This document shows, piece by piece, positions 26,347-61,133 of a stretch of 64,000 bases of DNA. Under the pieces are notes generated by a model. That model did no database searches. It was not told the origin of the DNA and saw only the letters and a list, made by a program, of their open reading frames with translations. This stretch comes from Solirubrobacterales bacterium (GTDB taxonomy: Bacteria > Actinomycetota > Thermoleophilia > Solirubrobacterales > JACPNS01). The number at the start of each line of letters is the position of its first letter. Within the stretch, counting starts at the first letter, position 1. The stretch lies in contig JBASTN010000046.1 of assembly GCA_049274915.1 (NCBI GenBank), forward strand, positions 6,519-70,518, written 5' to 3'. The translations under genes and the position numbers were made by a program.

Positions 26347-27915
26347 CTACAACGACGGGAAGGTCTGCGAAAACTTCGCGGCCGGCAGACGTGAGTTGCC
26401 CTTGAAACTCGACCGGACGTAGACCGACGCGGCCGAGACGCTGTTGCTGATTCCGTTGACGCGCAGGCTGGCGACGCACTTGGTGCCGCTGACGCGCAAC
26501 TTGGCGCGGATGCCCTTGCGCTTGGTCACGCCATCCTGGGTAACGCTGACGGTGGAGATAGTCGACCCGATGCAACGATCGGCGATGTCGCCGGGAACCG
26601 GCGGCACGACCATAAACAGCGCGACGAAGTTTGAGCGTCCGCCGCTCTTCTCGACCTTGACCTTGGTGTAGCTGGGTCCGGCGAAACGCGCGAGCGAACT
26701 CGGCTGGTTGGCATTGTCACGCGTGCCGTTGCCGAGCTGACCTTTGTCGTTGCGGCCCCAGCAGCGCAGCGTCTTGTCGACGAGTACGGCGCAGGTGTGG
26801 TACGCCCCCGTAGTGATCGAATCGACTGCGGCAGGTAGGCCAACGACGCTAACCGGGCGGGTGCTGCCGACGGCCGTGCCGTTGCCGAGCTGACCGTAGG
26901 AGTTTGCGCCCCAGCAGCGGACAGTGCCGTTGACCAGCAGCGCGCATGTGTGTGCTTGGCCAGTGGCGATCTCTTTGGCGCGACCGCCGAGGCTTTCGGT
27001 CGTCTCGGTTCCCTTGGTCGGCGTGACGCTTCCGTCGCCGAGCTGACCGTAGGAGTTTGCGCCCCAGCAGACAACGTTGTCGTTTGTGCGAATCGCGCAT
27101 GAGTGGTCGTAGCCCGAGGCGATCTGTGTGATGTCGTTGGCCATGTCAGGCACGCTGATCGACACGTTCGACGTGGGCGTCGCCGCGACTGCGGTGCCGA
27201 GCTGGCCCTGATTGTTGGCTCCCCAACAGCGCACGTTGCCGTTGGTCAGCAGCGCGCACGAGTGGTTGTTGCCGCTGACAACCTGCACAGCGGGATTTCC
27301 GAACCCGGCGACGACGACTGGTGTCGACGAGTCCGCATTGGTTGCGTTGCCCAGTTGGCCGGAACTGTTTTGGCCCTGGCACTTGACGGTGCGGTCGAGA
27401 TCGAGGAAACACATGTGGCGTTGGCCGACAGCGACGCTGCCCGGTGCTGCCCAGTTACCCGCGAGTGCCGCAGAGACCTGCTTGTTGGGCACGTTGTCAC
27501 CCTTGTTTTTCGCCCCCAGGGCGCCGTTCTCGTTGTTTCCCCAGCAGCGAACCGAACCGAAGTGCACGATCGCGCACGCCGAGTCGTAGCCGGTCGAAAC
27601 AACTTTCGGCACTCCGTTGAGCGCATTGACCGGAATCGGATTGAGCGCGTAACTGAGGTCGTTCTGGCCGATTCCGAGCTGCTTACGCACGTTCGAGCCC
27701 CAGCAGTAGACCTTGTCGCCGTTGGAATCGGCGCCGGTGGCGAAGATCGCACAGGTGTTAGCGGCTCCGGCGGAAAGTCGAGGGGTCGCGACCTGCGCAC
27801 TCGCCACAGCTGCAATCGCAGACAAACCAAGTAGCGCCGAGGCCAGGGCAAGAAGAAGGAGTCGCCCGCGCTGTTTGCGCAGGCGAGTGCGGATCGGTGA
27901 GTGACTTGTGGACAT
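26347..27915 (-). CDS. Secreted RCC1-repeat (7-bladed beta-propeller) protein with C-terminal extra domain
   Basis: Signal peptide (RLLLLALASALLGLSAIAAVASA), then seven C[WQ]GxNxxGQLG-type repeats. Confidence 0.85.
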   Translation of the reverse strand: MSTSHSPIRTRLRKQRGRLLLLALASALLGLSAIAAVASAQVATPRLSAGAANTCAIFATGADSNGDKVYCWGSNVRKQLGIGQNDLSYALNPIPVNALNGVPKVVSTGYDSACAIVHFGSVRCWGNNENGALGAKNKGDNVPNKQVSAALAGNWAAPGSVAVGQRHMCFLDLDRTVKCQGQNSSGQLGNATNADSSTPVVVAGFGNPAVQVVSGNNHSCALLTNGNVRCWGANNQGQLGTAVAATPTSNVSISVPDMANDITQIASGYDHSCAIRTNDNVVCWGANSYGQLGDGSVTPTKGTETTESLGGRAKEIATGQAHTCALLVNGTVRCWGANSYGQLGNGTAVGSTRPVSVVGLPAAVDSITTGAYHTCAVLVDKTLRCWGRNDKGQLGNGTRDNANQPSSLARFAGPSYTKVKVEKSGGRSNFVALFMVVPPVPGDIADRCIGSTISTVSVTQDGVTKRKGIRAKLRVSGTKCVASLRVNGISNSVSAASVYVRSSFKGNSRLPAAKFSQTFPSL

Positions 27916-43661: not shown

Positions 43662-44267
43662 CTAGCCGCGGGAAGCCGAGGCCGGGCTCCACATCGCGCT
43701 GATCTCCCGACTGATTTGCTTTCGCTTTCGTTCGGCGAATCGCATGTGTCGGACATACCCCTCGACGGATCCAAATATCTCGCAGGGGAGATCAGGATCA
43801 AACCAATCGGATGATCGCCCTCCCGCGAAGAGGCGATGCGACGAGAATTCGTAGTCCTCAAACCGGTTCACGTGCCGAAGATCGAGAGGATTCAGATGCA
43901 CGTAAGCGATGGCGGTGCGGAGATAGTTCGCGTCGTCAATCCGGGCGGCCTTGAACCGGCCCTGAAAAAGTGTTCCGTACCGATCGTGTCGAGCGTTGAA
44001 TCTCCGGACGTACGACGTCAAAGCACTGTGCATCAGGCGCGCGATCGCATCCGATGACGTCTGACTCAGGATCAGGTGAAAGTGGTTTCCCATCAGGCAA
44101 TACGCGACGATCCGTGCGTCGATCCGATTGACGCGACAAGCGAACGAATCGAGAAACAGGTTCCGGTCATGGTCGTCCACGAAGATCCGCTCGCCATTTA
44201 CTCCGCGGTTGTACGCGTGGAACGTCGATCGCGGCAGATATTGCTTGACCGTGTTCGGACTCGGCAT
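43662..44267 (-). CDS. REP-associated tyrosine transposase-like (RAYT / IS200-type Y1 HUH transposase)
   Basis: YHxxNRG-like FHAYNRGVNGERIF, the HUH motif AYCLMGNHFHLIL, GTLFQGRFKAARI and the catalytic-Tyr region AIAYVHLNPL. Confidence 0.8.
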   Translation of the reverse strand: MPSPNTVKQYLPRSTFHAYNRGVNGERIFVDDHDRNLFLDSFACRVNRIDARIVAYCLMGNHFHLILSQTSSDAIARLMHSALTSYVRRFNARHDRYGTLFQGRFKAARIDDANYLRTAIAYVHLNPLDLRHVNRFEDYEFSSHRLFAGGRSSDWFDPDLPCEIFGSVEGYVRHMRFAERKRKQISREISAMWSPASASRG

Positions 44268-50536: not shown

Positions 50537-50608
50537 GGGTCCTTAGCTCAACTGGTAGAGCATCGGGCTTTTAACCCGGCGGACAGGGTTCGAGTCCCTG
50601 AGGACCCA
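50537..50608 (+). tRNA. tRNA-Lys (anticodon TTT)
   Basis: GGGTCCTTAGCTCAACTGGTAGAGCATCGGGCTTTTAACCCGGCGGACAGGGTTCGAGTCCCTGAGGACCCA. Acceptor is GGGTCCT/AGGACCC, the anticodon loop is CTTTTAA, and the T arm is CAGGG-TTCGAGT-CCCTG. Confidence 0.95.
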
Positions 50609-50674
50609 TTCAACTCGATTCGCCGGTTTATGCCTACCCCCAAGTAGCCAAACCCCCCGGCTACAGTCGGCGCG

Positions 50675-52273
50675 ATGGGGCGGCCGCAACGCGATCTCGT
50701 CATCTGCTGTGACGGCACCTGGATCTCCCAGGGGCGGGGTCAGCTGTCGAGTATCGGCCGCATCGCGCAGCTTGCCGCGCTGTCGAACAATGCCAGCGCA
50801 GAGACCGAGCACAACCTCGTGTTCTACTCGCGCGGAGTCGGTACGAACAACTTTGCGGATGGGCTCGTGGGTGGCGGGATCGGCGACGGGATGGAGTCGC
50901 ACATCGTCGACGCGTACCACTTCCTGGTCCACAACTACGTCGCCGGCGACCGGATCTTTCTGTTCGGGTTCTCGCGCGGCGCGTTCACCGTTCGTTGCCT
51001 CGCCGGCATGCTCGACGAGATCGGACTGCTCAAGCGCGAGCACGCAATTCAGATCCATCACGCATACCGACGCTTCCGCCGGAGGATGATCGACAAGGAC
51101 TATCCGATCGCCTTTGTCGAGAATCAGCTGCACCGCCCAGAGATTCAGTTCCTCGGTGTCTTCGACACAGTCGGTGCGGCCGGCGTACCGATTCGCGGAC
51201 TCGACACGACGCGCCGCTTCCGCAACCATCTCCTGCCTGCGAAGGTCCGCTTCGCCCGGCACGCGCTGGCGATCAACGAGCCGCGCTCATTGTTCTTACC
51301 GACGGTATGGGAAGGACTGGAGGACGAGGATGATTCGCAGCAGCCGATCGGCGACACCCGGGTCGTCGAGCCCGAGACCGCCTCAGCCGACGAAGTTCTG
51401 CCGCGTGTCAAGCAGGTTTGGTTCGCGGGAGTGCACGGCGACGTCGGCGGCGCCTACGCCCGTGCCGACTTGCTGGAGCACGGGCACCTCGGACGCTTTC
51501 CATTCGAGTGGATGCTGCAAGAGGCGAAGGCTTGCGGATTCACTTATGACCCGGCCACCGCACACGAGATGATCAGCGCACTTAAGCCCGTGCCCGAGGA
51601 TCTCGGGACCTATGTGATGCATGACTCGATGGCGCATTTCTATTGGATCTTCGACAAGTTCCGTTACCTGTCACGCGTGATCACGCAAGGCGATACACGG
51701 TTCTTCCGGCGCTACATCGAGGCATCTAAAGCAGTCGACCAGTCGATCCACGAGTCTGCTTTGAACATGTATTTGCTCGACCGAGACCACACCCCTGGCG
51801 GCACCGAGAAGCGGCGGCTTGTCATCGAGCGCAGGACTGCGTGGCTGTGGCGCGGACCGCGACACTTCCGGTTCTCGCGCAATCGGGAGATGCAATCGCT
51901 AGAAGCGGCGATCCGAGAACAACTCGAGGCCTCGCCGTCGACGGCCGACATCGACTTCGTCGGGCATACGCCGATTACCGCGGGTGCAGTCGAGGGCGTA
52001 GCGTTCCAGCCTCGGATCCGATGGGTGAATCGCGTGGCCCGGGTCGCCATTTGGATCGCCGCGATCGCGGCCGCCTTGTATTACGGAGTGATCCTCGGCG
52101 GGAAGTGGCTGTTCGGCACTGCCCTACCGGATCTCTGGGATGCAATCGTCGATGTACTCCCAAGCGATCTCAAGACCTGGCTGATCGCGATCGCGGCGAT
52201 CGCGATCGGCGGCGTGGCGTACTCGTTCTATCTCACACGCAAACGGCTCTACGGCTTCAAGTACTTGCGGTGA
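50675..52273 (+). CDS. DUF2235 (Tle1-like alpha/beta hydrolase/phospholipase domain) protein with C-terminal double TM anchor
   Basis: LVICCDGTW, VFYSRGVGT, the DRIFLFGFSRGAFTVRCLAGML (GxSxG) motif and LGVFDTVGAAG are present. The last ~70 residues contain two hydrophobic helices. Confidence 0.75.
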   Translation: MGRPQRDLVICCDGTWISQGRGQLSSIGRIAQLAALSNNASAETEHNLVFYSRGVGTNNFADGLVGGGIGDGMESHIVDAYHFLVHNYVAGDRIFLFGFSRGAFTVRCLAGMLDEIGLLKREHAIQIHHAYRRFRRRMIDKDYPIAFVENQLHRPEIQFLGVFDTVGAAGVPIRGLDTTRRFRNHLLPAKVRFARHALAINEPRSLFLPTVWEGLEDEDDSQQPIGDTRVVEPETASADEVLPRVKQVWFAGVHGDVGGAYARADLLEHGHLGRFPFEWMLQEAKACGFTYDPATAHEMISALKPVPEDLGTYVMHDSMAHFYWIFDKFRYLSRVITQGDTRFFRRYIEASKAVDQSIHESALNMYLLDRDHTPGGTEKRRLVIERRTAWLWRGPRHFRFSRNREMQSLEAAIREQLEASPSTADIDFVGHTPITAGAVEGVAFQPRIRWVNRVARVAIWIAAIAAALYYGVILGGKWLFGTALPDLWDAIVDVLPSDLKTWLIAIAAIAIGGVAYSFYLTRKRLYGFKYLR

Positions 52274-55867: not shown

Positions 55868-55939
55868 GGCCCGATCGTCTAATGGTTAGGACGTCGGCTT
55901 TTCAAGCCGAAAACCGGGGTTCGACTCCCCGTCGGGCTA
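55868..55939 (+). tRNA. tRNA-Glu (anticodon TTC)
   Basis: GGCCCGATCGTCTAATGGTTAGGACGTCGGCTTTTCAAGCCGAAAACCGGGGTTCGACTCCCCGTCGGGCTA. The anticodon loop is TTTTCAA, the T arm is CGGGG-TTCGACT-CCCCG, and G1.U72 is a wobble pair. Confidence 0.92.
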
Positions 55940-55973
55940 CTTTGGGTCACCGCGACGTGAACGTGACAAATTA

Positions 55974-55993
55974 ACCCGCATAACCATGCGGGT
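55974..55993 (+). terminator. Hairpin + TT after tRNA-Glu
   Basis: ACCCGCAT-AACC-ATGCGGGT followed by TT. Confidence 0.45.
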
Positions 55994-56203
55994 TTGCCGT
56001 GGTCAATGAACGTGACCAATTAAGTACGGCGACCGGCCGTAGCGACCGAGAAGTCTGCAAAATAGCTGCCGATGGAGCTGCACCACAGCTTCTATCGCTA
56101 GCGACGGTGGAAGGGGTCCGTTCTTGGCGAACAAAACGCGAACGTCAACTCGCAGACCGAGTCAAATCGAGACAATCGTGACAAACAAAAACCGCATACC
56201 TAA

Positions 56204-56290
56204 GCCCTCCGCCTGACTCAAAGAGACCCATTTAGACACCTCAGCGCGATGGTAAGGAAGGGGTCTCCGGTTCGAGTCCGGAAGAGGGCT
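56204..56290 (+). other. tRNA-like remnant (intact T arm + acceptor 3' strand; no valid D/anticodon arms)
   Basis: TCCGG-TTCGAGT-CCGGA then AGAGGGC at 56266-56289. This pairs with GCCCTCC at 56204-56210, but the intervening 53 nt cannot be folded into D and anticodon arms. Confidence 0.35.
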
Positions 56291-56312
56291 TACTGCCAGA
56301 TCAATCGCCCGG

Positions 56313-56855
56313 TCACGCGTTGGCGATTCGGATCGCGATTCCTTCGAGCATCCGTTTCACGCGCTGCCTCTCGCGGTCGGCGATCGGCAGCAGCTCGACT
56401 CGTGACTGCATCAGCTCAAGTTCGACGAGTCCTTCCTCCGCGGCGCATTGAACGAATTCCCAGTCGCGCTCTCTGCCGGCGACGCACTTGGAAAGCGCGA
56501 GGTCGTTCGGTTCGAGGCATTCGGCGGTGATGGTTTTGCCGCCGTCGGTGAATTCCAATGGAATGAGGCGGTCCTCCCAGCCCGCGGGGCACTTTGCCGT
56601 TTCCGGGCCGACGCCGTGTCCGTATACGCCGTGGGTGCTCTGAAACATTGAGCCCTCGCCGATGCCGCCATCGATCTCGATTGCTTTCTCTGGACTCTCG
56701 CGCGGATAAATATCCGCCTCCATCGAAAAGACCAGAGGATCGGGAAGATCCTCACGAGTGGCAAGAATCAATTGACTGCCGACTACGACGAACCGTGTCT
56801 CGTCGGTGATTCGCGCCGATGCGCGCACGATGTGGATGAGCTGGTCTCGATTCAT
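56313..56855 (-). CDS. Nucleotidyltransferase-fold protein (DUF6036-like), putative toxin/effector of a two-gene module
   Basis: 180 aa. FVVVGSQLIL...SMEADIYP fits the minimal NTase hG[GS]...[DE]x[DE] pattern. GEGSMFQSTHGVYGHGV and DLALSKCVAGRERDWEF resemble DUF6036 from memory. Confidence 0.55.
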   Translation of the reverse strand: MNRDQLIHIVRASARITDETRFVVVGSQLILATREDLPDPLVFSMEADIYPRESPEKAIEIDGGIGEGSMFQSTHGVYGHGVGPETAKCPAGWEDRLIPLEFTDGGKTITAECLEPNDLALSKCVAGRERDWEFVQCAAEEGLVELELMQSRVELLPIADRERQRVKRMLEGIAIRIANA

Positions 56856-57559
56856 CCGACGACCTGCGCGAGAATCTCCCTGCGCTCGGGTTCGCTCAGT
56901 GTTCCGGCGAACGGCGAGTTCTGCCGCAGGTCGAATCCGGCTTCGGATTCATCCACCAGCGCCGACTTGATCTCCACGATCGATCCCGCGAGGATCCGCT
57001 CCCACTGGTCGGCATATCGGTCGTGCATCCGGCCCTCGTCCCGTAGGCGCCAAACGGTGCGCAGTGCGTCGTCGGCCTGCGCGCGCGAAAGATTTCGCGC
57101 GACTTCGCGGTGGTAGGCGAGCGCAAGCCGGTTTGCTCGGTCGTGCGGGGCCCCGTCGCGCGGGCCGGCGTAAGCTGCTCCGCGCGCGCGCAGGCGCTCG
57201 GCCTTTTGGCGATTTTCCCGCATCACCGGCTCGAGTGAGTGCGCGTGACCGTTTGGTCCGCGCGTCCGGTCGACGGCGATTGCCAGATCGACCAGATAGC
57301 GGGTCGGGATTTCTTCGCGCCCCTGCGCGTTGAGCACGAGGGGCAGATCACCGGTCTTGGTCCAGCGGCCCAGCGCGGTGTGACTCACACCAAGGAGCTC
57401 AGCGGCGAGTCGTTGCGAGACCGTCGGGCCGATCCTGCGCTCGAGGTTTGCGCCCACCGTGACGAGGTCTCGGTTGGGTGGAAGTTCGCGTTGGACGCGG
57501 CGAAGGCGGATCAGGTCTTCGAGATCGGCGGCTTTGCGTTCGTTCGCTGACATATTCAC
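56852..57559 (-). CDS. HTH DNA-binding protein, putative antitoxin/regulator partner
   Basis: QRLAAELLGVSHTALGRWTKTGDLP is an HTH, followed by a ~150-aa helical C-terminal domain. A 4-nt ATGA overlap links it to the downstream NTase gene. The start is GTG 57559 or ATG 57553. Confidence 0.55.
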   Translation of the reverse strand: MNMSANERKAADLEDLIRLRRVQRELPPNRDLVTVGANLERRIGPTVSQRLAAELLGVSHTALGRWTKTGDLPLVLNAQGREEIPTRYLVDLAIAVDRTRGPNGHAHSLEPVMRENRQKAERLRARGAAYAGPRDGAPHDRANRLALAYHREVARNLSRAQADDALRTVWRLRDEGRMHDRYADQWERILAGSIVEIKSALVDESEAGFDLRQNSPFAGTLSEPERREILAQVVG

Positions 57560-57593
57560 AGTCTACCGAAAGATGCCACACATTACAAATAAT

Positions 57594-57615
57594 GACAACT
57601 TTAACCTAAGTTGTC
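57594..57615. promoter_or_regulatory. Perfect 8-bp inverted repeat (GACAACTT-N6-AAGTTGTC) in the AT-rich leader of the HTH/NTase operon; candidate operator
   Basis: Read directly from the sequence. It lies 35-56 nt upstream of the HTH gene start, within the sequence ATTACAAATAATGACAACTTTAACCTAAGTTGTC. Confidence 0.4.
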
Positions 57616-57744
57616 TGCCGCCGGCGGCATCGGACGCCGCAAGATCTCGAATGTGTCCTGCCCCTGGCATGATCAGGTCGACATCGCGCTGATCGCGATC
57701 GCGATACAGCCGAATCGGGTCGTCCAGCGCGTTGCTCTGACGCA

Positions 57745-57965
57745 ATAGCTCGACCGCCGCGACCGTCGCTTTTCGACGAACGGATCAACCGCGTGGCCGA
57801 GACTGCCAGCGATCAGTCATCGTTCAGCCTCTTCTACATCGACCTCGACGAGTTCAAGTCCGTCAATGACGATCTCGGTCACGATGTCGGCGACGAACTG
57901 TCGCGTCAGGTCGCCGGTCGCTTTCGTGGCCGCCTGCGCGACTTCGATCTAGTTGCACGAAGAAC
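57745..57965 (+). pseudogene. GGDEF (diguanylate cyclase) domain fragment lacking start, upstream sensor and the GGDEF motif itself
   Basis: LFDERINRVAETASDQSSFSLFYIDLDEFKSVNDDLGHDVGDELSRQVAGRFRGRLRDFDLVAR matches the first half of a GGDEF domain. It then diverges (RTGTSELEG) and stops. Confidence 0.6.
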
Positions 57966-58120
57966 CGGCACGTCGGAGCTAGAAGGTGCTGCGCAGGCGG
58001 GTTGAGCTCAAGCCGTTCTGAAGCTCATGCGCCGACCAGCGCAAAGACCCTTCGCTCATCCCGTAACCCTTCCGATTCGAGCCGGCGAGTGTTCGTCCTC
58101 GCACAGCCAATGGCACACGT

Positions 58121-58360
58121 TCAGTTTAGAAATATGTCCGGCAATCGATTCTTGCCAGCGCATGCACGCGCCTTGCTGTTTTTTGACGGTGGCCACGTCT
58201 CGATCGGATCGGCATAGAAATACTGCGGCTCAGTCTTCTGCAGACATTCGTGATATTGGTGCCGACCCGTGAACACTGCAGTCGCGATGAGCGTGAAGAT
58301 GATCACCACTACTCCTGCGCCTTGAAGCAATCTCCTTGATGGGGCACCTCGCTGTTTCAT
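58121..58360 (-). CDS. Possible small single-TM protein
   Basis: ATG 58360 is preceded by GAGGGGA. The product MKQRGAPSRRLLQGAGVVVIIFTLIATAVFTG... has one TM helix. GC is lower than the surroundings. No family recognised. Confidence 0.3.
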   Translation of the reverse strand: MKQRGAPSRRLLQGAGVVVIIFTLIATAVFTGRHQYHECLQKTEPQYFYADPIETWPPSKNSKARACAGKNRLPDIFLN

Positions 58361-58445
58361 TCTCAATATCCCCTCACTTCATGTCCCCAGTGCAGGTATC
58401 CTGCCGGAACTCGGCACGCAATATTGCTGTCCATTCTCGCCTCTA

Positions 58446-58817
58446 ATGGACGAACTCTTGGCGGGCGATCTGCCCGTGTGGCAGCGTGAACGTGCAATGG
58501 GGGTTCGCCTGATGGCGCTTGGCCGTCCAAACCAAGACGTGGCAGAGATAGTCGGTAGACACGAAAACACAGTCGGCGTGTGGCGCAGGGAATACGCGCA
58601 GCGAGGCATCGAGTCGATCACCGAACCTCGCGGCGGCCGTCGCAATCAGGTGATGGATGAGGCCGCAGAACAGGCCTTCGTTGAAGGGTTCGCCAAGGCG
58701 GCAGAGCGAGGCGAACCGGTGACCGCGAACATCATCCACGAGGCGCTCATCAAGCAGACCGGTCAAGAGGTCTGGCCGTCGACCGTATACCGGACGCTGG
58801 AGCGAAATGGCTGGCGC
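58446..58817 (+). pseudogene. IS630-family transposase N-terminal HTH portion, truncated (no DDE domain)
   Basis: RERAMGVRLMALGRPNQDVAEIVGRHENTVGVWRREY...PRGGRRNQVMDEA...IIHEALIKQTGQEVWPSTVYRTLERNGWRR is typical of IS630 ORF1. The reading frame then runs into the duplicated fragment at 58818. Confidence 0.55.
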
Positions 58818-58949
58818 CGGTCGGCGATCGGCAGCAGCTCGACTCGTGACTGCATTAGCTCAAGTTCGACGAGTCCTTCCTCCGCGGCGCATTGAACGAA
58901 CGACCTCGCGCTTTCCAAGTGCGTCGCCGGCAGAGAGCGCGACTGGGAG
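58818..58949. repeat. Second copy of part of the NTase gene 3' region: 83 bp direct (82/83) + adjacent 49 bp inverted (48/49)
   Basis: 58818-58900 matches 56374-56456 with one C/T difference. 58901-58949 is the reverse complement of 56457-56505 with one difference. Both copies continue with TTCG. Confidence 0.9.
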
Positions 58950-59103
58950 TTCGCTCAATACTGTCCAGTCTGGATTACGGTCGCCGTAACACTGGCGACC
59001 GGGGTGGACTACTTCGTGAATGTGGGCAAGCGGCTGGATGAGCTATTGCAGCCACCGGAGGAGCCGCGCGGCATGGCCAATATGCGCTTGAGCCGTCCGC
59101 GCG

Positions 59104-59841
59104 TCAGCGCGGCTTTGTCACAACTGCACAAGACGTGATCGGAAAGAATGGATCGTCGATCGCGAGGTCGCGCTCGTCAAGTTCTTCCGCGGCAAGTCCC
59201 ATGAAAAACGAAATCCCGCTGAGCACGTTTCCGTGGCCCTCCACAACGATTTTCGCCTCTGCAGGCAGCGACAGCGTCAGCCGCTGTTCGAATCCGCGGG
59301 GCGTGTAGCGCCAAAAATCGATGTCGGAGATCTCATGATCGACACGCCCCAAGCACGGCGCCGTGATGAGCAGGTTGCCACCGGGTTTCAATGCACGCCA
59401 CAGGTTCTTCAGAGCCGCGTCTTCGTCACCCAGCAGGTGAAACGTCTGCGTCAGCACGATGCTGTCGTATGCCTCTGCCGGCAGTGATTTCGGCACGCAG
59501 AGGTCTGCGATCAGATCGGCTTTTGAGTTGTCCGGATCGATGTCCACCACATGCGCCCGCGTCACGCGGTCGCCGCCGAAACGGCGCACGTAGTCAGCGT
59601 CACGCACCTCCATCGCGTTCCCGAGAATGAGTTTCTTCGACCGTTCGAGAAAGCGCTCGATGTACCAGCGGTCCACCGGCAGCCCGCGATCCCATCCGTA
59701 GCAGTCGCTGAACGGCTTCGTTCGCTTCAGTGAACCCCAGCGCACCCGGCGTCCGGGCGCGCGGCGAATTGCCCACCGCGCCTTCGGTTTGAGCCGTTTT
59801 GCGAGCCTTTCGTTCTGCGCGATTCGGTCTTTCGGAGTCAC
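59104..59841 (-). CDS. Class I SAM-dependent methyltransferase (polysaccharide-cluster type)
   Basis: GWDRGLPVDRWYIERFL, AMEVRDADYVRRFGG, SIVLTQTFHLL and LKPGGNLLITAP are present. I prefer GTG 59841, which forms a GTGA overlap with the flippase stop. Confidence 0.8.
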   Translation of the reverse strand: MTPKDRIAQNERLAKRLKPKARWAIRRAPGRRVRWGSLKRTKPFSDCYGWDRGLPVDRWYIERFLERSKKLILGNAMEVRDADYVRRFGGDRVTRAHVVDIDPDNSKADLIADLCVPKSLPAEAYDSIVLTQTFHLLGDEDAALKNLWRALKPGGNLLITAPCLGRVDHEISDIDFWRYTPRGFEQRLTLSLPAEAKIVVEGHGNVLSGISFFMGLAAEELDERDLAIDDPFFPITSCAVVTKPR

Positions 59842-61133
59842 TCTGTAGGGCCTTTCGGTGAAAGCAATGTCATCACCGATGGTAGGAGTGCGATCGCCAC
59901 GACGGCATTCGCAATCGTCCAACCGAGGGCAATTCCGTTTATCCCCAAGGGCGAAGCCAGAATGGCTGACGTGGGAATCAAAAGAAGCATGATCGATGTC
60001 TCGACGATCAGGATTCGTCTTCCGCGGCCGGCCACTCGCTCTAGCGCAACGAAGAGCATGATGATTACGCGGAAAACCGAAGCGCAGGCGAGGATCCTCA
60101 GCACTGAGTCGCCGGCGGCGGCATAGTCCGAGCCGAAGGGGAGCAGCGCGACGTGAGCCAAAACGATCAGCCCAAACAATGCGGCGATCAGGGGAGCCGC
60201 GAACCGCCGGACGACGGTGCGCGCCAGTTGACGGGTCTGCGATTCGTCAAAAGCGCCCTCCACGACAAGTGATGTGGCGACGCCGTAAGACAGCAGATCG
60301 AACGCGATGATCATCGTGAATGGAATGAAGAAGTATGCGTTTTGAACGCTCCCGAGAATGCCAACGACTAGCAACGGCAAAAAGGTCGTGGTGGCTCGGG
60401 CGAGGACGGAGGCAAAGTAATCCTGAGTGTGGAAGAAGATCAGCTCGCGGCGCTTCATCTGACGCACAGTAGAGAACTCGACGGCAGGCAATTGCGAGTG
60501 GGCAGTTGCGAGGCGTGTGAACAGGATGAAGCTAATCGGAATGAGCAACGGCAGCACCGGGATGACCCATGCCAGAAAGACGCCGTTGGTCAGCGTCGTC
60601 GCCGCGAGCACGGGCAAGGCGGCGATCTTGAGCACGCCGAACGAAATATTCTCGGCCGGCACCCACGGCGCGCGACGCAAGCCGACTAGCGCCGAATCCT
60701 GCAACGTGAACCAGCCCCAGATGATCAGCGCAAGCACGAATCCCGGAGCGATCAGGCCGGATCGGAGAAAGCCGAATTCGTCGGACACGGCGGGCGCAAG
60801 CATTACGAAAACGGTCCCCAGCACAAGCGCCGCGAGCCCGCTGATCGCGAACGCGCCGGCGAGCACCCGCCGGACGTTTTCGCGCAGCGCTGGTAGAAAA
60901 CGCGGCAGAGCGTTGTCGAGGTTCAGCTGGCAGACGGTGGAGAGTTCGACGAGCGCCGCGAGCAGGGCGCCGTCGCGCCCGATCTGATCAGCGCTGAATG
61001 TTCGCGCGGCGATCGCCCAGAAGGCGATTCCCAGGAGCGCGGTGGCGCCGGAGTTGACGATCAAGCTGTTGGCGCCGCGCATGAGGTGGCGAGAGTCGGC
61101 ACCTTCCACGTTCGCGTCAGCGTGGGCTTGCAT
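59838..61133 (-). CDS. Wzx/MOP-type polysaccharide flippase
   Basis: 431 aa with about 12 TM helices. The N-terminus GANSLIVNSGATALLGIAFWAIAARTFSADQIG is typical of polysaccharide-biosynthesis transporters. Confidence 0.75.
   Translation of the reverse strand: MQAHADANVEGADSRHLMRGANSLIVNSGATALLGIAFWAIAARTFSADQIGRDGALLAALVELSTVCQLNLDNALPRFLPALRENVRRVLAGAFAISGLAALVLGTVFVMLAPAVSDEFGFLRSGLIAPGFVLALIIWGWFTLQDSALVGLRRAPWVPAENISFGVLKIAALPVLAATTLTNGVFLAWVIPVLPLLIPISFILFTRLATAHSQLPAVEFSTVRQMKRRELIFFHTQDYFASVLARATTTFLPLLVVGILGSVQNAYFFIPFTMIIAFDLLSYGVATSLVVEGAFDESQTRQLARTVVRRFAAPLIAALFGLIVLAHVALLPFGSDYAAAGDSVLRILACASVFRVIIMLFVALERVAGRGRRILIVETSIMLLLIPTSAILASPLGINGIALGWTIANAVVAIALLPSVMTLLSPKGPTE

Follow-up and report, generated by a model that had tools for sequence, protein, structure and literature searches.

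A 142-bp, partly inverted copy of a nucleotidyltransferase gene segment in a Solirubrobacterales genome: most likely an inert scar left by error-prone repair or replication

When a gene segment recurs nearby with half of it inverted, is the second copy a switch or gene cassette, or is it a scar of DNA rearrangement? This question is raised by one contig of a metagenome-assembled Solirubrobacterales genome (NCBI MAG), of which a 64-kb stretch, here called the window, was analysed. At positions 58818-58959 of the window lies a 142-bp patch, in which a piece from the C-terminal part of a nucleotidyltransferase (NTase) gene has been copied part forwards and part as its reverse complement. The features of the locus are listed in Table 1.

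Table 1. Features of the patch, its donor gene and the surrounding interval (window coordinates)
Feature	Position	Strand	Basis
tRNA-Glu (UUC), left bound of the debris-rich interval	55868-55940	+	ARAGORN; Rfam, 68 bits
DUF6036-family NTase gene (donor of the patch), intact, 180 aa	56313-56855	-	Pfam PF19502
Source tract of patch part A (NTase codons 134-161, antisense)	56374-56456	+	sequence comparison
Source tract of patch part B (NTase codons 116-137, antisense; contains motif NDLALSKCVAGRERDWE)	56447-56509	+	
Weak quasi-palindrome in the donor: outer 6-bp GAACGA/TCGTTC, inner 7-bp TCGCGCT/AGCGCGA	56450-56508	.	DNA fold
HTH partner gene, 235 aa, 4-bp overlap with the NTase start	56852-57559	-	weak HTH_17 match
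GGDEF-domain fragment, truncated at both ends	57673-58002	+	Pfam PF00990, positions 14-81 of 161
IS630-family transposase gene, N-terminal third (codons 1-124), cut at the patch	58446-58817	+	NCBIfam NF033545
Patch part A, direct copy of 56374-56456 (82/83)	58818-58900	+	
Strand-switch junction, microhomology CGAA where A ends and B starts (4 nt, or 7 nt allowing a 1-nt bulge)	58897-58900	.	sequence
Patch part B, reverse-complement copy of 56447-56509 (61/63); the + strand reads NTase sense PNDLALSKCVAGRERDWEFAQ	58897-58959	+	
Putative pgsA-like (CDP-alcohol phosphatidyltransferase) 3' remnant: last ~25 conserved codons, tail and stop	58968-59138	+	
Methyltransferase gene, right bound of the interval; a polysaccharide-type gene cluster resumes here	59104-59922	-	Pfam methyltransferase domains, ORF context

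The direct repeat reported by the first-pass annotation was borne out, with one mismatch in 83 nt. The adjoining 49 bp (58901-58949) had been described as precisely inverted, and they are the reverse complement of 56457-56505 at 48 of 49 positions. However, this figure falls short of the whole event: the inverted tract measures 63 nt and re-copies donor sequence already present in the direct tract. Parts A and B share 4 nt (CGAA) in the copy, and their donor tracts share 10 nt. The two copies had also been said to share TTCG and then diverge. TTCG is shared, but the copy beyond it (TTCGCTCAAT) is still the reverse complement of the donor, matching ATTGAACGAA, the end of the direct tract, at nine of 10 positions. 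Re-copying is told apart from an in-place flip between short inverted repeats by the last three nucleotides only (AAT, 58957-58959): AAT after TTCGCTC fits re-copying, whereas the donor downstream reads GGT. As for the inverted sequences said to bound the block (AACGAA and TTCGGTT), a short inverted repeat exists, but that pairing needs a 1-nt bulge, and the perfect repeat is the 6-bp GAACGA (56450-56455) and TCGTTC (56503-56508), which is not distinguishable from chance. The fold of the donor quasi-palindrome is no more stable than those of shuffled sequences (z = +1.1) and so gives no sign of a selected structure; the quasi-palindrome supplies the microhomology for the strand switch.

Probes for each part of the patch gave exactly two matches in the window, with none expected from shuffles, and the further copies that had been thought worth searching for were not present there. 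Whole-window self-BLAST detected no other dispersed high-identity repeat. Similarity to the donor ends abruptly at both patch edges; a family HMM built from 120 members recognised nothing past these edges, and no NTase or HTH-partner debris other than the patch in 57560-59200. Patch and donor differ at three positions (C>T, A>G and T>C in patch orientation), of which the single one in part A is synonymous in the NTase frame, as are two of the three overall. Polarising the mismatches with the closest homologue (L012) was ambiguous: the donor agrees with L012, and at 58949 and 58954 the patch carries the base of more distant homologues instead of the donor's. These two bases could be due to chance (about 1 in 9) or to a slightly different allele that served as template. 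The NTase-like open frames within the patch are not genes.

The two flanks of the patch were not neighbours originally, and it sits at their breakpoint: on one side is the IS630 gene, cut at codon 124, on the other the 3' end of the pgsA-like gene (its last ~25 codons). On the left, residues 1-124 match positions 2-110 of the 299 in NF033545 (E = 6.7e-15, 55 bits versus a cutoff of 100) and the Pfam families HTH_29, HTH_23, HTH_32 and HTH_33, the last of which is cut at 37 of 60 positions. Where IS630 homologues run on as GWRK-LAPRPSHP, the window reads GWRR and then departs from them; at the protein level, the nearest IS homologues are 64-67% identical. The IS630 piece is a fragment and not a full-length, functional transposase with a DDE catalytic domain. 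The ORF at 58446-58895 encodes 149 aa, and its residues 125-149 come from reading the NTase sequence antisense; the in-frame fusion to a truncated IS630-type ORF had been correctly described. P0121, annotated as a 149-aa "helix-turn-helix domain-containing protein", is a chimeric pseudogene.

On the right, the remnant shares 84% identity over 25 aa with the C-termini of P0124 and P0125. P0125 in turn matches the C-terminal end of PF01066 (positions 108-151 of 152, E = 3e-4), TIGR00560 pgsA (115-178 of 183, E = 1.9e-5) and PgsA of PDB 7drj. This two-step inference suggests, with moderate strength, that the right flank is a pgsA-like remnant. Positions 58960-59135 were also considered as the C-terminus of a diverged DUF6036 paralogue in frame with part B, and this candidate was rejected since the 120-member HMM aligns to the patch alone. 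The GGDEF fragment in the same interval marks it as a zone of gene decay. Besides the tRNA-Glu, no RNA element was detected by Rfam in 55.5-59.5 kb, and no promoter-like site was found.

The donor gene product matches PF19502 with 38.2 bits (gathering cutoff 23.6), aligns to the family over its full length, without indels at residues 116-161, and is 100% identical to the NCBI MAG protein P0001. A homologue search with it found 424 proteins, and PF19502 is present in all but one of the 120 homologues listed. DNA similarity to loci L001 and L007 extends across the HTH partner gene, and the same upstream gene, of about 201-241 aa, is also found in L012-L015; the NTase and its HTH partner form a conserved two-gene module. 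No significant PADLOC match assigned the module to a defence system, and our search found no literature on DUF6036. The inverted block encodes NDLALSKCVAGRERDWE, the most conserved motif of the family, with seven invariant residues from D118 to D131. The first-pass annotation had asked whether the inverted version would encode a sensible alternative C-terminus. Flipping the 49 bp in place leaves the NTase frame open, but NDLALSKCVAGRERDWE is replaced by the unrelated residues SQSRSLPATHLESARS, and such a flip would destroy the conserved motif of the family. As for relatives, scans of genome and metagenome contigs for NTase relatives found no same-species genome, only distant loci of at most 71% DNA identity, and look-ups of the exact NTase, HTH partner, DoxX gene and methyltransferase sequences had no sister strain on record. 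The first-pass annotation had proposed a comparison of the locus in related strains; none of the 15 related loci contains a partial duplicate of its own NTase module.

Template switching, fold-back repair and debris of an IS-associated rearrangement, three of the origins first proposed, each fit this anatomy, because the patch is placed between truncated IS630 and pgsA-like genes, the donor is intact and the switch occurred at a 4-nt inverted microhomology. We consider it probable that the patch is non-functional filler made by serial template switching (copy-choice, MMBIR or FoSTeS) at an illegitimate deletion junction; most likely, it is an inert scar left when DNA was repaired or replicated with errors, and not a switch or gene cassette. 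The following course of events may be envisaged: A break or stalled synthesis would have occurred within an IS630-family element in or next to the pgsA-like gene, and the repairing or replicating 3' end would have jumped 2.4 kb to the DUF6036 NTase gene, where 83 nt of one strand were copied (56374 to 56456). The terminal CGAA would then have re-annealed to TTCG (56506-56509) on the complementary template, inside the weak quasi-palindrome, and 63 nt would have been copied back along the other strand (56509 to 56447), before a second jump led back to the chromosome, within the 3' end of the pgsA-like gene. In this course the donor would only be read, which is why the NTase gene remained intact. 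The CGAA microhomology belongs to the inner, strand-switch junction; the outer junctions are 58817/58818 and 58959/58960. Direct observation underlies what the scheme says of the anatomy of the patch and its sequence identities, the places of the junctions, the CGAA microhomology, the two truncated flanks and the intact donor; we infer the enzymology, the direction in which synthesis ran and the assignment of all switches to a single event. Neither tract holds the template for the other, so self-primed snap-back alone would be insufficient and the complementary strand of the donor would be needed.

Both fold-back priming and the switching of synthesis to an alternate template nearby are established mutational mechanisms (PMC7954356, PMC10622511). 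The patch resembles short-range template-switch and MMBIR/FoSTeS insertions in that a short tract was taken from a nearby donor that was left intact, part of it is reverse-complemented, the switch lies at a few-nt microhomology within a quasi-palindrome, and the patch sits at a breakpoint joining unrelated sequences. Unlike classical quasi-palindrome switches, which occur in place and keep the flanking homology, it lies 2.4 kb from its donor and bridges a deletion.

The leading alternative, which we nevertheless regard as unlikely, is an inverted duplication by fold-back (snap-back) with a subsequent deletion. In a duplicated or nascent NTase copy, a 3' end in TTCG would fold onto CGAA and prime synthesis, so that arm A, beyond a spacer of 49 nt, would be followed by its reverse complement; all but 10 nt of one arm would then be lost in a further deletion, which would join the rest to the pgsA-like remnant. 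Bacterial palindromes are unstable, which suits such a loss, and the copy does have the form of A, the reverse complement of the spacer and the first 10 nt of the reverse complement of A (ATTGAACGAA to TTCGCTCAAT, 9/10). Inverted duplications arising by fold-back priming are documented (PMC10622511, PMC3907307), and the patch shares with them the inverted microhomology CGAA/TTCG, the spacer of ~49 nt and a direct arm that continues inverted. However, in contrast to fold-back duplications at double-strand breaks, the arms seen here are 83 nt and only 10 nt (9/10), the donor is unbroken and the product lies away from it. This explanation needs at least one extra event, a deletion ending no more than 10 nt from the spacer, and the intact resident NTase gene means that the break was in another copy, of which there is no other trace. 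Another possibility, which we hold improbable, is that a second NTase module was once complete here and survives only as the patch; its 49-bp block would have been inverted in place by a short template switch or through inverted repeats, and the module then eroded from both sides. The 6-bp repeats flanking the block in the donor, the abundance of eroded genes in the interval and the three differences, two of which match other family members and two of which are synonymous, as might suit a once-functional paralogue, are in line with this. However, both deletion end-points would have to coincide with the ends of the rearranged tract, the family HMM found no further debris of the module, and the AAT end speaks for re-copying. 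We give slightly less credence still to a chimeric join in the MAG as an assembly or sequencing artefact. Amplification chemistry can yield inverted chimeras, the source is a single contig of 80.5 kb and no independent assembly of the locus was found, but the artefact would require three joins within 142 bp with overlaps of at most 4 nt, whereas graph and overlap assemblers need long exact overlaps, and the three differences from the donor mean that the same reads were not used twice.

Site-specific inversion producing a cassette-like C-terminus, the remaining origin proposed in the first-pass annotation, found no support. Pfam scans of the ORFs from 40.8 kb to 61.1 kb, and the ORF listing alone for 61.1-64 kb, revealed no serine or tyrosine recombinase; the only related match near the patch was an IS200-like Y1_Tnp ORF 12 kb away. 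The patch is like Hin/Gin/Cin segments, shufflons and fim-type switches in that a segment is opposite to the adjoining sequence and bounded by short inverted repeats. It is unlike them in lacking a recombinase (none within ~15 kb) and specific crossover sites, in having repeats of just 6 bp, in involving two loci and not one that alternates, and in losing the motif when inverted. A diversity-generating retroelement was also rejected, as there is no reverse transcriptase among the scanned ORFs, the copies differ at only three positions (C>T, A>G, T>C) with no adenine-specific pattern, and one half of the repeat runs in reverse; a recurrent cassette was rejected on the lack of duplicates in the related loci. 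It is highly improbable that the patch is a programmed element, whether an invertible segment or silent cassette for the NTase C-terminal region or the source of a trans-antisense RNA regulating the NTase. The open frame after the flip would permit the former, and, as read from the sequence, a read-through transcript of the IS630 fragment would hold 83 nt complementary to the NTase mRNA; but antisense open frames are common at 60% GC, and neither the absence of a promoter-like site nor the ordinary fold stability favours the latter. It would be equally surprising if the patch were not inert, such that the IS630 read-through RNA, with 83 nt of antisense and the sense motif block, modulated a putative toxin-like NTase in trans, or the block were the substrate of a recombinase encoded elsewhere in the genome.

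In conclusion, the kind of event recorded by the patch is already known and ordinary, and the patch has no evident biological function. Its annotation is affected nonetheless: P0121 should be read as a chimeric pseudogene and the open frames of the patch as non-genes. In the Solirubrobacterales, an uncultured actinobacterial lineage, the patch would offer a clean natural case of a scar left by several template-switch steps, one of them between strands, and indicates that filler DNA at a deletion junction can imitate an invertible cassette.

The copied segment of the NTase gene (the patch) is composed of two tracts. The first-pass annotation had described a direct repeat identical at 82 of 83 positions and an adjoining inverted block of 49 bp (48/49), and these counts were upheld in base-by-base registers. 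It had also stated that both copies share TTCG and then diverge. TTCG is shared, but in the copy it is followed by TTCGCTCAAT, which at 9 of 10 positions is the reverse complement of ATTGAACGAA, the final 10 nt of the direct tract. Since the reverse-complement match runs on beyond TTCG, the copy consists of two abutting tracts, A and B. The repeat finder returned both as pairs with the donor (direct, 83 nt, 99% identity; inverted, 63 nt, 97% complementarity). CGAA (58897-58900) is common to both tracts in the copy, their donor sources overlap by 10 nt, and donor similarity ends sharply at 58817/58818 and 58959/58960. Each half of the patch, used as a probe, had exactly two matches in the window against none expected from shuffles, and in self-BLAST the donor and patch were the only dispersed high-identity repeat in all 64 kb; the further copies proposed as a check were not found there. 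The repeat is genuine and far exceeds chance.

Features of the interval that holds the patch and its donor
Feature	Position	Strand	Remarks
tRNA-Glu	55868-55940		left bound of the interval
Donor NTase gene	56313-56855	-	180 aa, intact; its 3' part is the source of the patch
HTH partner gene	upstream of NTase, 4 bp overlap (both genes, 56313-57559)	-	235 aa
GGDEF diguanylate-cyclase domain fragment	57673-58002	+	profile positions 14-81 of 161, both ends cut
Chimeric ORF	58446-58895		149 aa; HTH protein (P0121) in the source record
Patch	58818-58959		142 bp
Tract A	58818-58900		direct copy of donor 56374-56456 (base-by-base registers)
Tract B	58897-58959		reverse complement of donor 56447-56509 (base-by-base registers)
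Mismatch	58856		synonymous in the NTase frame
Mismatch	58949		synonymous
Mismatch	58954		V135A; Ala is the family-consensus residue
Methyltransferase gene	59104-59922		right bound of the interval

On the left of the patch, residues 1-124 of the chimeric ORF match positions 2-110 of the 299-position IS630-family transposase model and the corresponding Pfam HTH domains, of which HTH_33 is cut at 37/60. The two available homologues of this fragment run ...GWRK-LAPRPSHPKADP; the window departs from them straight after GWRR, at codon 124, and the final 25 residues of the ORF are tract A read antisense. On the right, the frame running on from tract B had no Pfam match and was not recognized by an HMM of 120 DUF6036 proteins, so the right flank was rejected as DUF6036 sequence. 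An exhaustive HMMER search and a word-indexed search gave one related protein each, P0124 and P0125, both 84% identical to the flank over VWITVAVTLATGVDYFVNVGKRLDE. P0125 matches the Pfam model for CDP-alcohol phosphatidyltransferase at the model's C-terminal end (positions 108-151 of 152) and TIGR00560 pgsA (115-178 of 183), and weakly the solved PgsA structure 7drj. By this two-step argument of moderate strength, the pgsA-like right flank most likely represents the final ~25 codons of a gene that has lost its 5' part. The patch joins two truncated unrelated genes, which places it at an illegitimate deletion junction.

The donor protein matches above threshold Pfam DUF6036, a nucleotidyltransferase of unknown function. 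It has 424 homologues, among them a 100% identical protein from an NCBI metagenome-assembled Solirubrobacterales genome (contig of 80.5 kb). Its pairing with a HTH protein of ~201-241 aa through a 4-bp overlap is conserved and recurs in unrelated neighborhoods, so the two genes form a mobile module. These neighborhoods are varied and often rich in defence or TA genes; at one homologous locus (L013) the module adjoins HipBA, Fic and helicase genes. The pair is possibly an uncharacterised candidate toxin-antitoxin-like system. It had no match in PADLOC and no NCBIfam assignment, and no literature on DUF6036 was found. Just 3' of the NTase gene end, at 56201-56292, a 22-nt inverted repeat (82%) surrounds T-arm-like GGTTCGAGTCC. 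Possible readings are a fragment derived from a tRNA and a hairpin of the terminator type; neither ARAGORN nor Rfam (E<=1) called a tRNA.

According to the family alignment, residues 117-133, NDLALSKCVAGRERDWE, which the 49-bp block encodes, form the densest invariant run of the protein (D118, L119, L121, K123, A126, R128 and D131); the block therefore stands in its ancestral, functional orientation in the intact gene. If the block were flipped in place the frame would stay open, but the conserved motif would be destroyed and become SQSRSLPATHLESARS, so that no sensible alternative C-terminus would result. This speaks against the proposal of site-specific inversion producing a cassette-like C-terminus, as do the inverted repeats of 6 bp only, the absence of a partial module duplicate within 6-8 kb at all 15 homologous loci (0/15), and the lack of a serine/tyrosine recombinase among the ORFs of 40.8-64 kb (Pfam scan to 61.1 kb, then ORF listing). 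The sole transposase-type gene among those ORFs is an IS200-like Y1 ORF 12 kb away. Neither a promoter-like site nor a significant structure was detected, which also speaks against the proposal.

The donor is intact, so its sequence was copied, not moved. Tract A passes into tract B by a strand switch at CGAA/TTCG, within a weak quasi-palindrome of the donor (outer repeat GAACGA/TCGTTC, inner repeat TCGCGCT/AGCGCGA), whose stability does not exceed that of shuffled sequence. Simple self-primed snap-back cannot yield the product because neither tract holds the template of the other; we infer that the template has to have been the complementary strand of the donor duplex. A single episode of serial template switching accounts for this most economically; template switching was among the origins that the first-pass annotation had listed. 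Synthesis would have left the broken IS for donor position 56374, copied along the donor to 56456, crossed to the opposite strand at 56509, returned along it to 56447 and exited to the pgsA-like remnant. Such serial switching is seen at MMBIR/FoSTeS junctions. Short-range template switches also show it (PMC7954356). A fold-back palindrome (PMC10622511, PMC3907307) that was trimmed later is an unlikely origin, and a once-complete second NTase module that was inverted in place and then eroded is less likely still; each requires additional events that would have to end where the rearranged tract ends.

Because the locus comes from a single MAG contig and no independent assembly of it was found, a pure assembly artefact has to be considered. 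It is unlikely, since no assembler can make, inside 142 bp, three joins that each overlap by <=4 nt, and since three positions of the patch do not match the donor. At 58949 and 58954 the donor has the base of L012, its closest homologue, whereas the patch agrees with the more distant L001, L013 and L014. Chance could account for this (about 1 in 9), and so could error-prone synthesis close to the last junction, because the sites lie 5 nt apart and <=11 nt from it; a slightly different template allele is a further possibility.

The interval from tRNA-Glu to the methyltransferase gene, a zone marked by insertion and decay, breaks into a polysaccharide-type gene cluster; within it the GGDEF fragment separates the HTH gene from the IS630 fragment. 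Directly 3' of tRNA-Glu, a 17-nt direct repeat, TGAACGTGAC(A/C)AATTAA, occurs twice (55958-55974 and 56007-56023; 49-nt spacing); at this border of the inserted interval it may be what is left of an att site, or a repeat to which a protein binds. A second gene beside a tRNA, possibly an acquired one, is at 50537-52273, where tRNA-Lys directly precedes a 532-aa ORF whose product has a T6SS Tle1-like phospholipase catalytic domain. The segment 44379-44480, in which a near-perfect palindrome of 59 nt (AAGCCGCTCCCCAAGCCGCTCC ... GGAGCGGCTTGGGGAGCGGCTT) is followed by an extra direct copy of the 22-mer and TGTTTCAC, lies ~110 nt from the start of an IS200-like / REP-associated tyrosine transposase-like Y1_Tnp ORF (43662-44267, minus strand), and the arrangement looks like a REP/RAYT type. 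ORF 26347-27915 (minus strand) contains diverged tandem repeats of ~153 nt (26722-27273; 68-77% identity) and probably encodes a repeat-containing protein.

The patch is a genuine mutational scar, a one-off whose mechanistic class is known, and it has no evident function; it is neither a cassette nor a switch. In practice, this mainly means that the 149-aa HTH protein of the annotation is a chimeric pseudogene.
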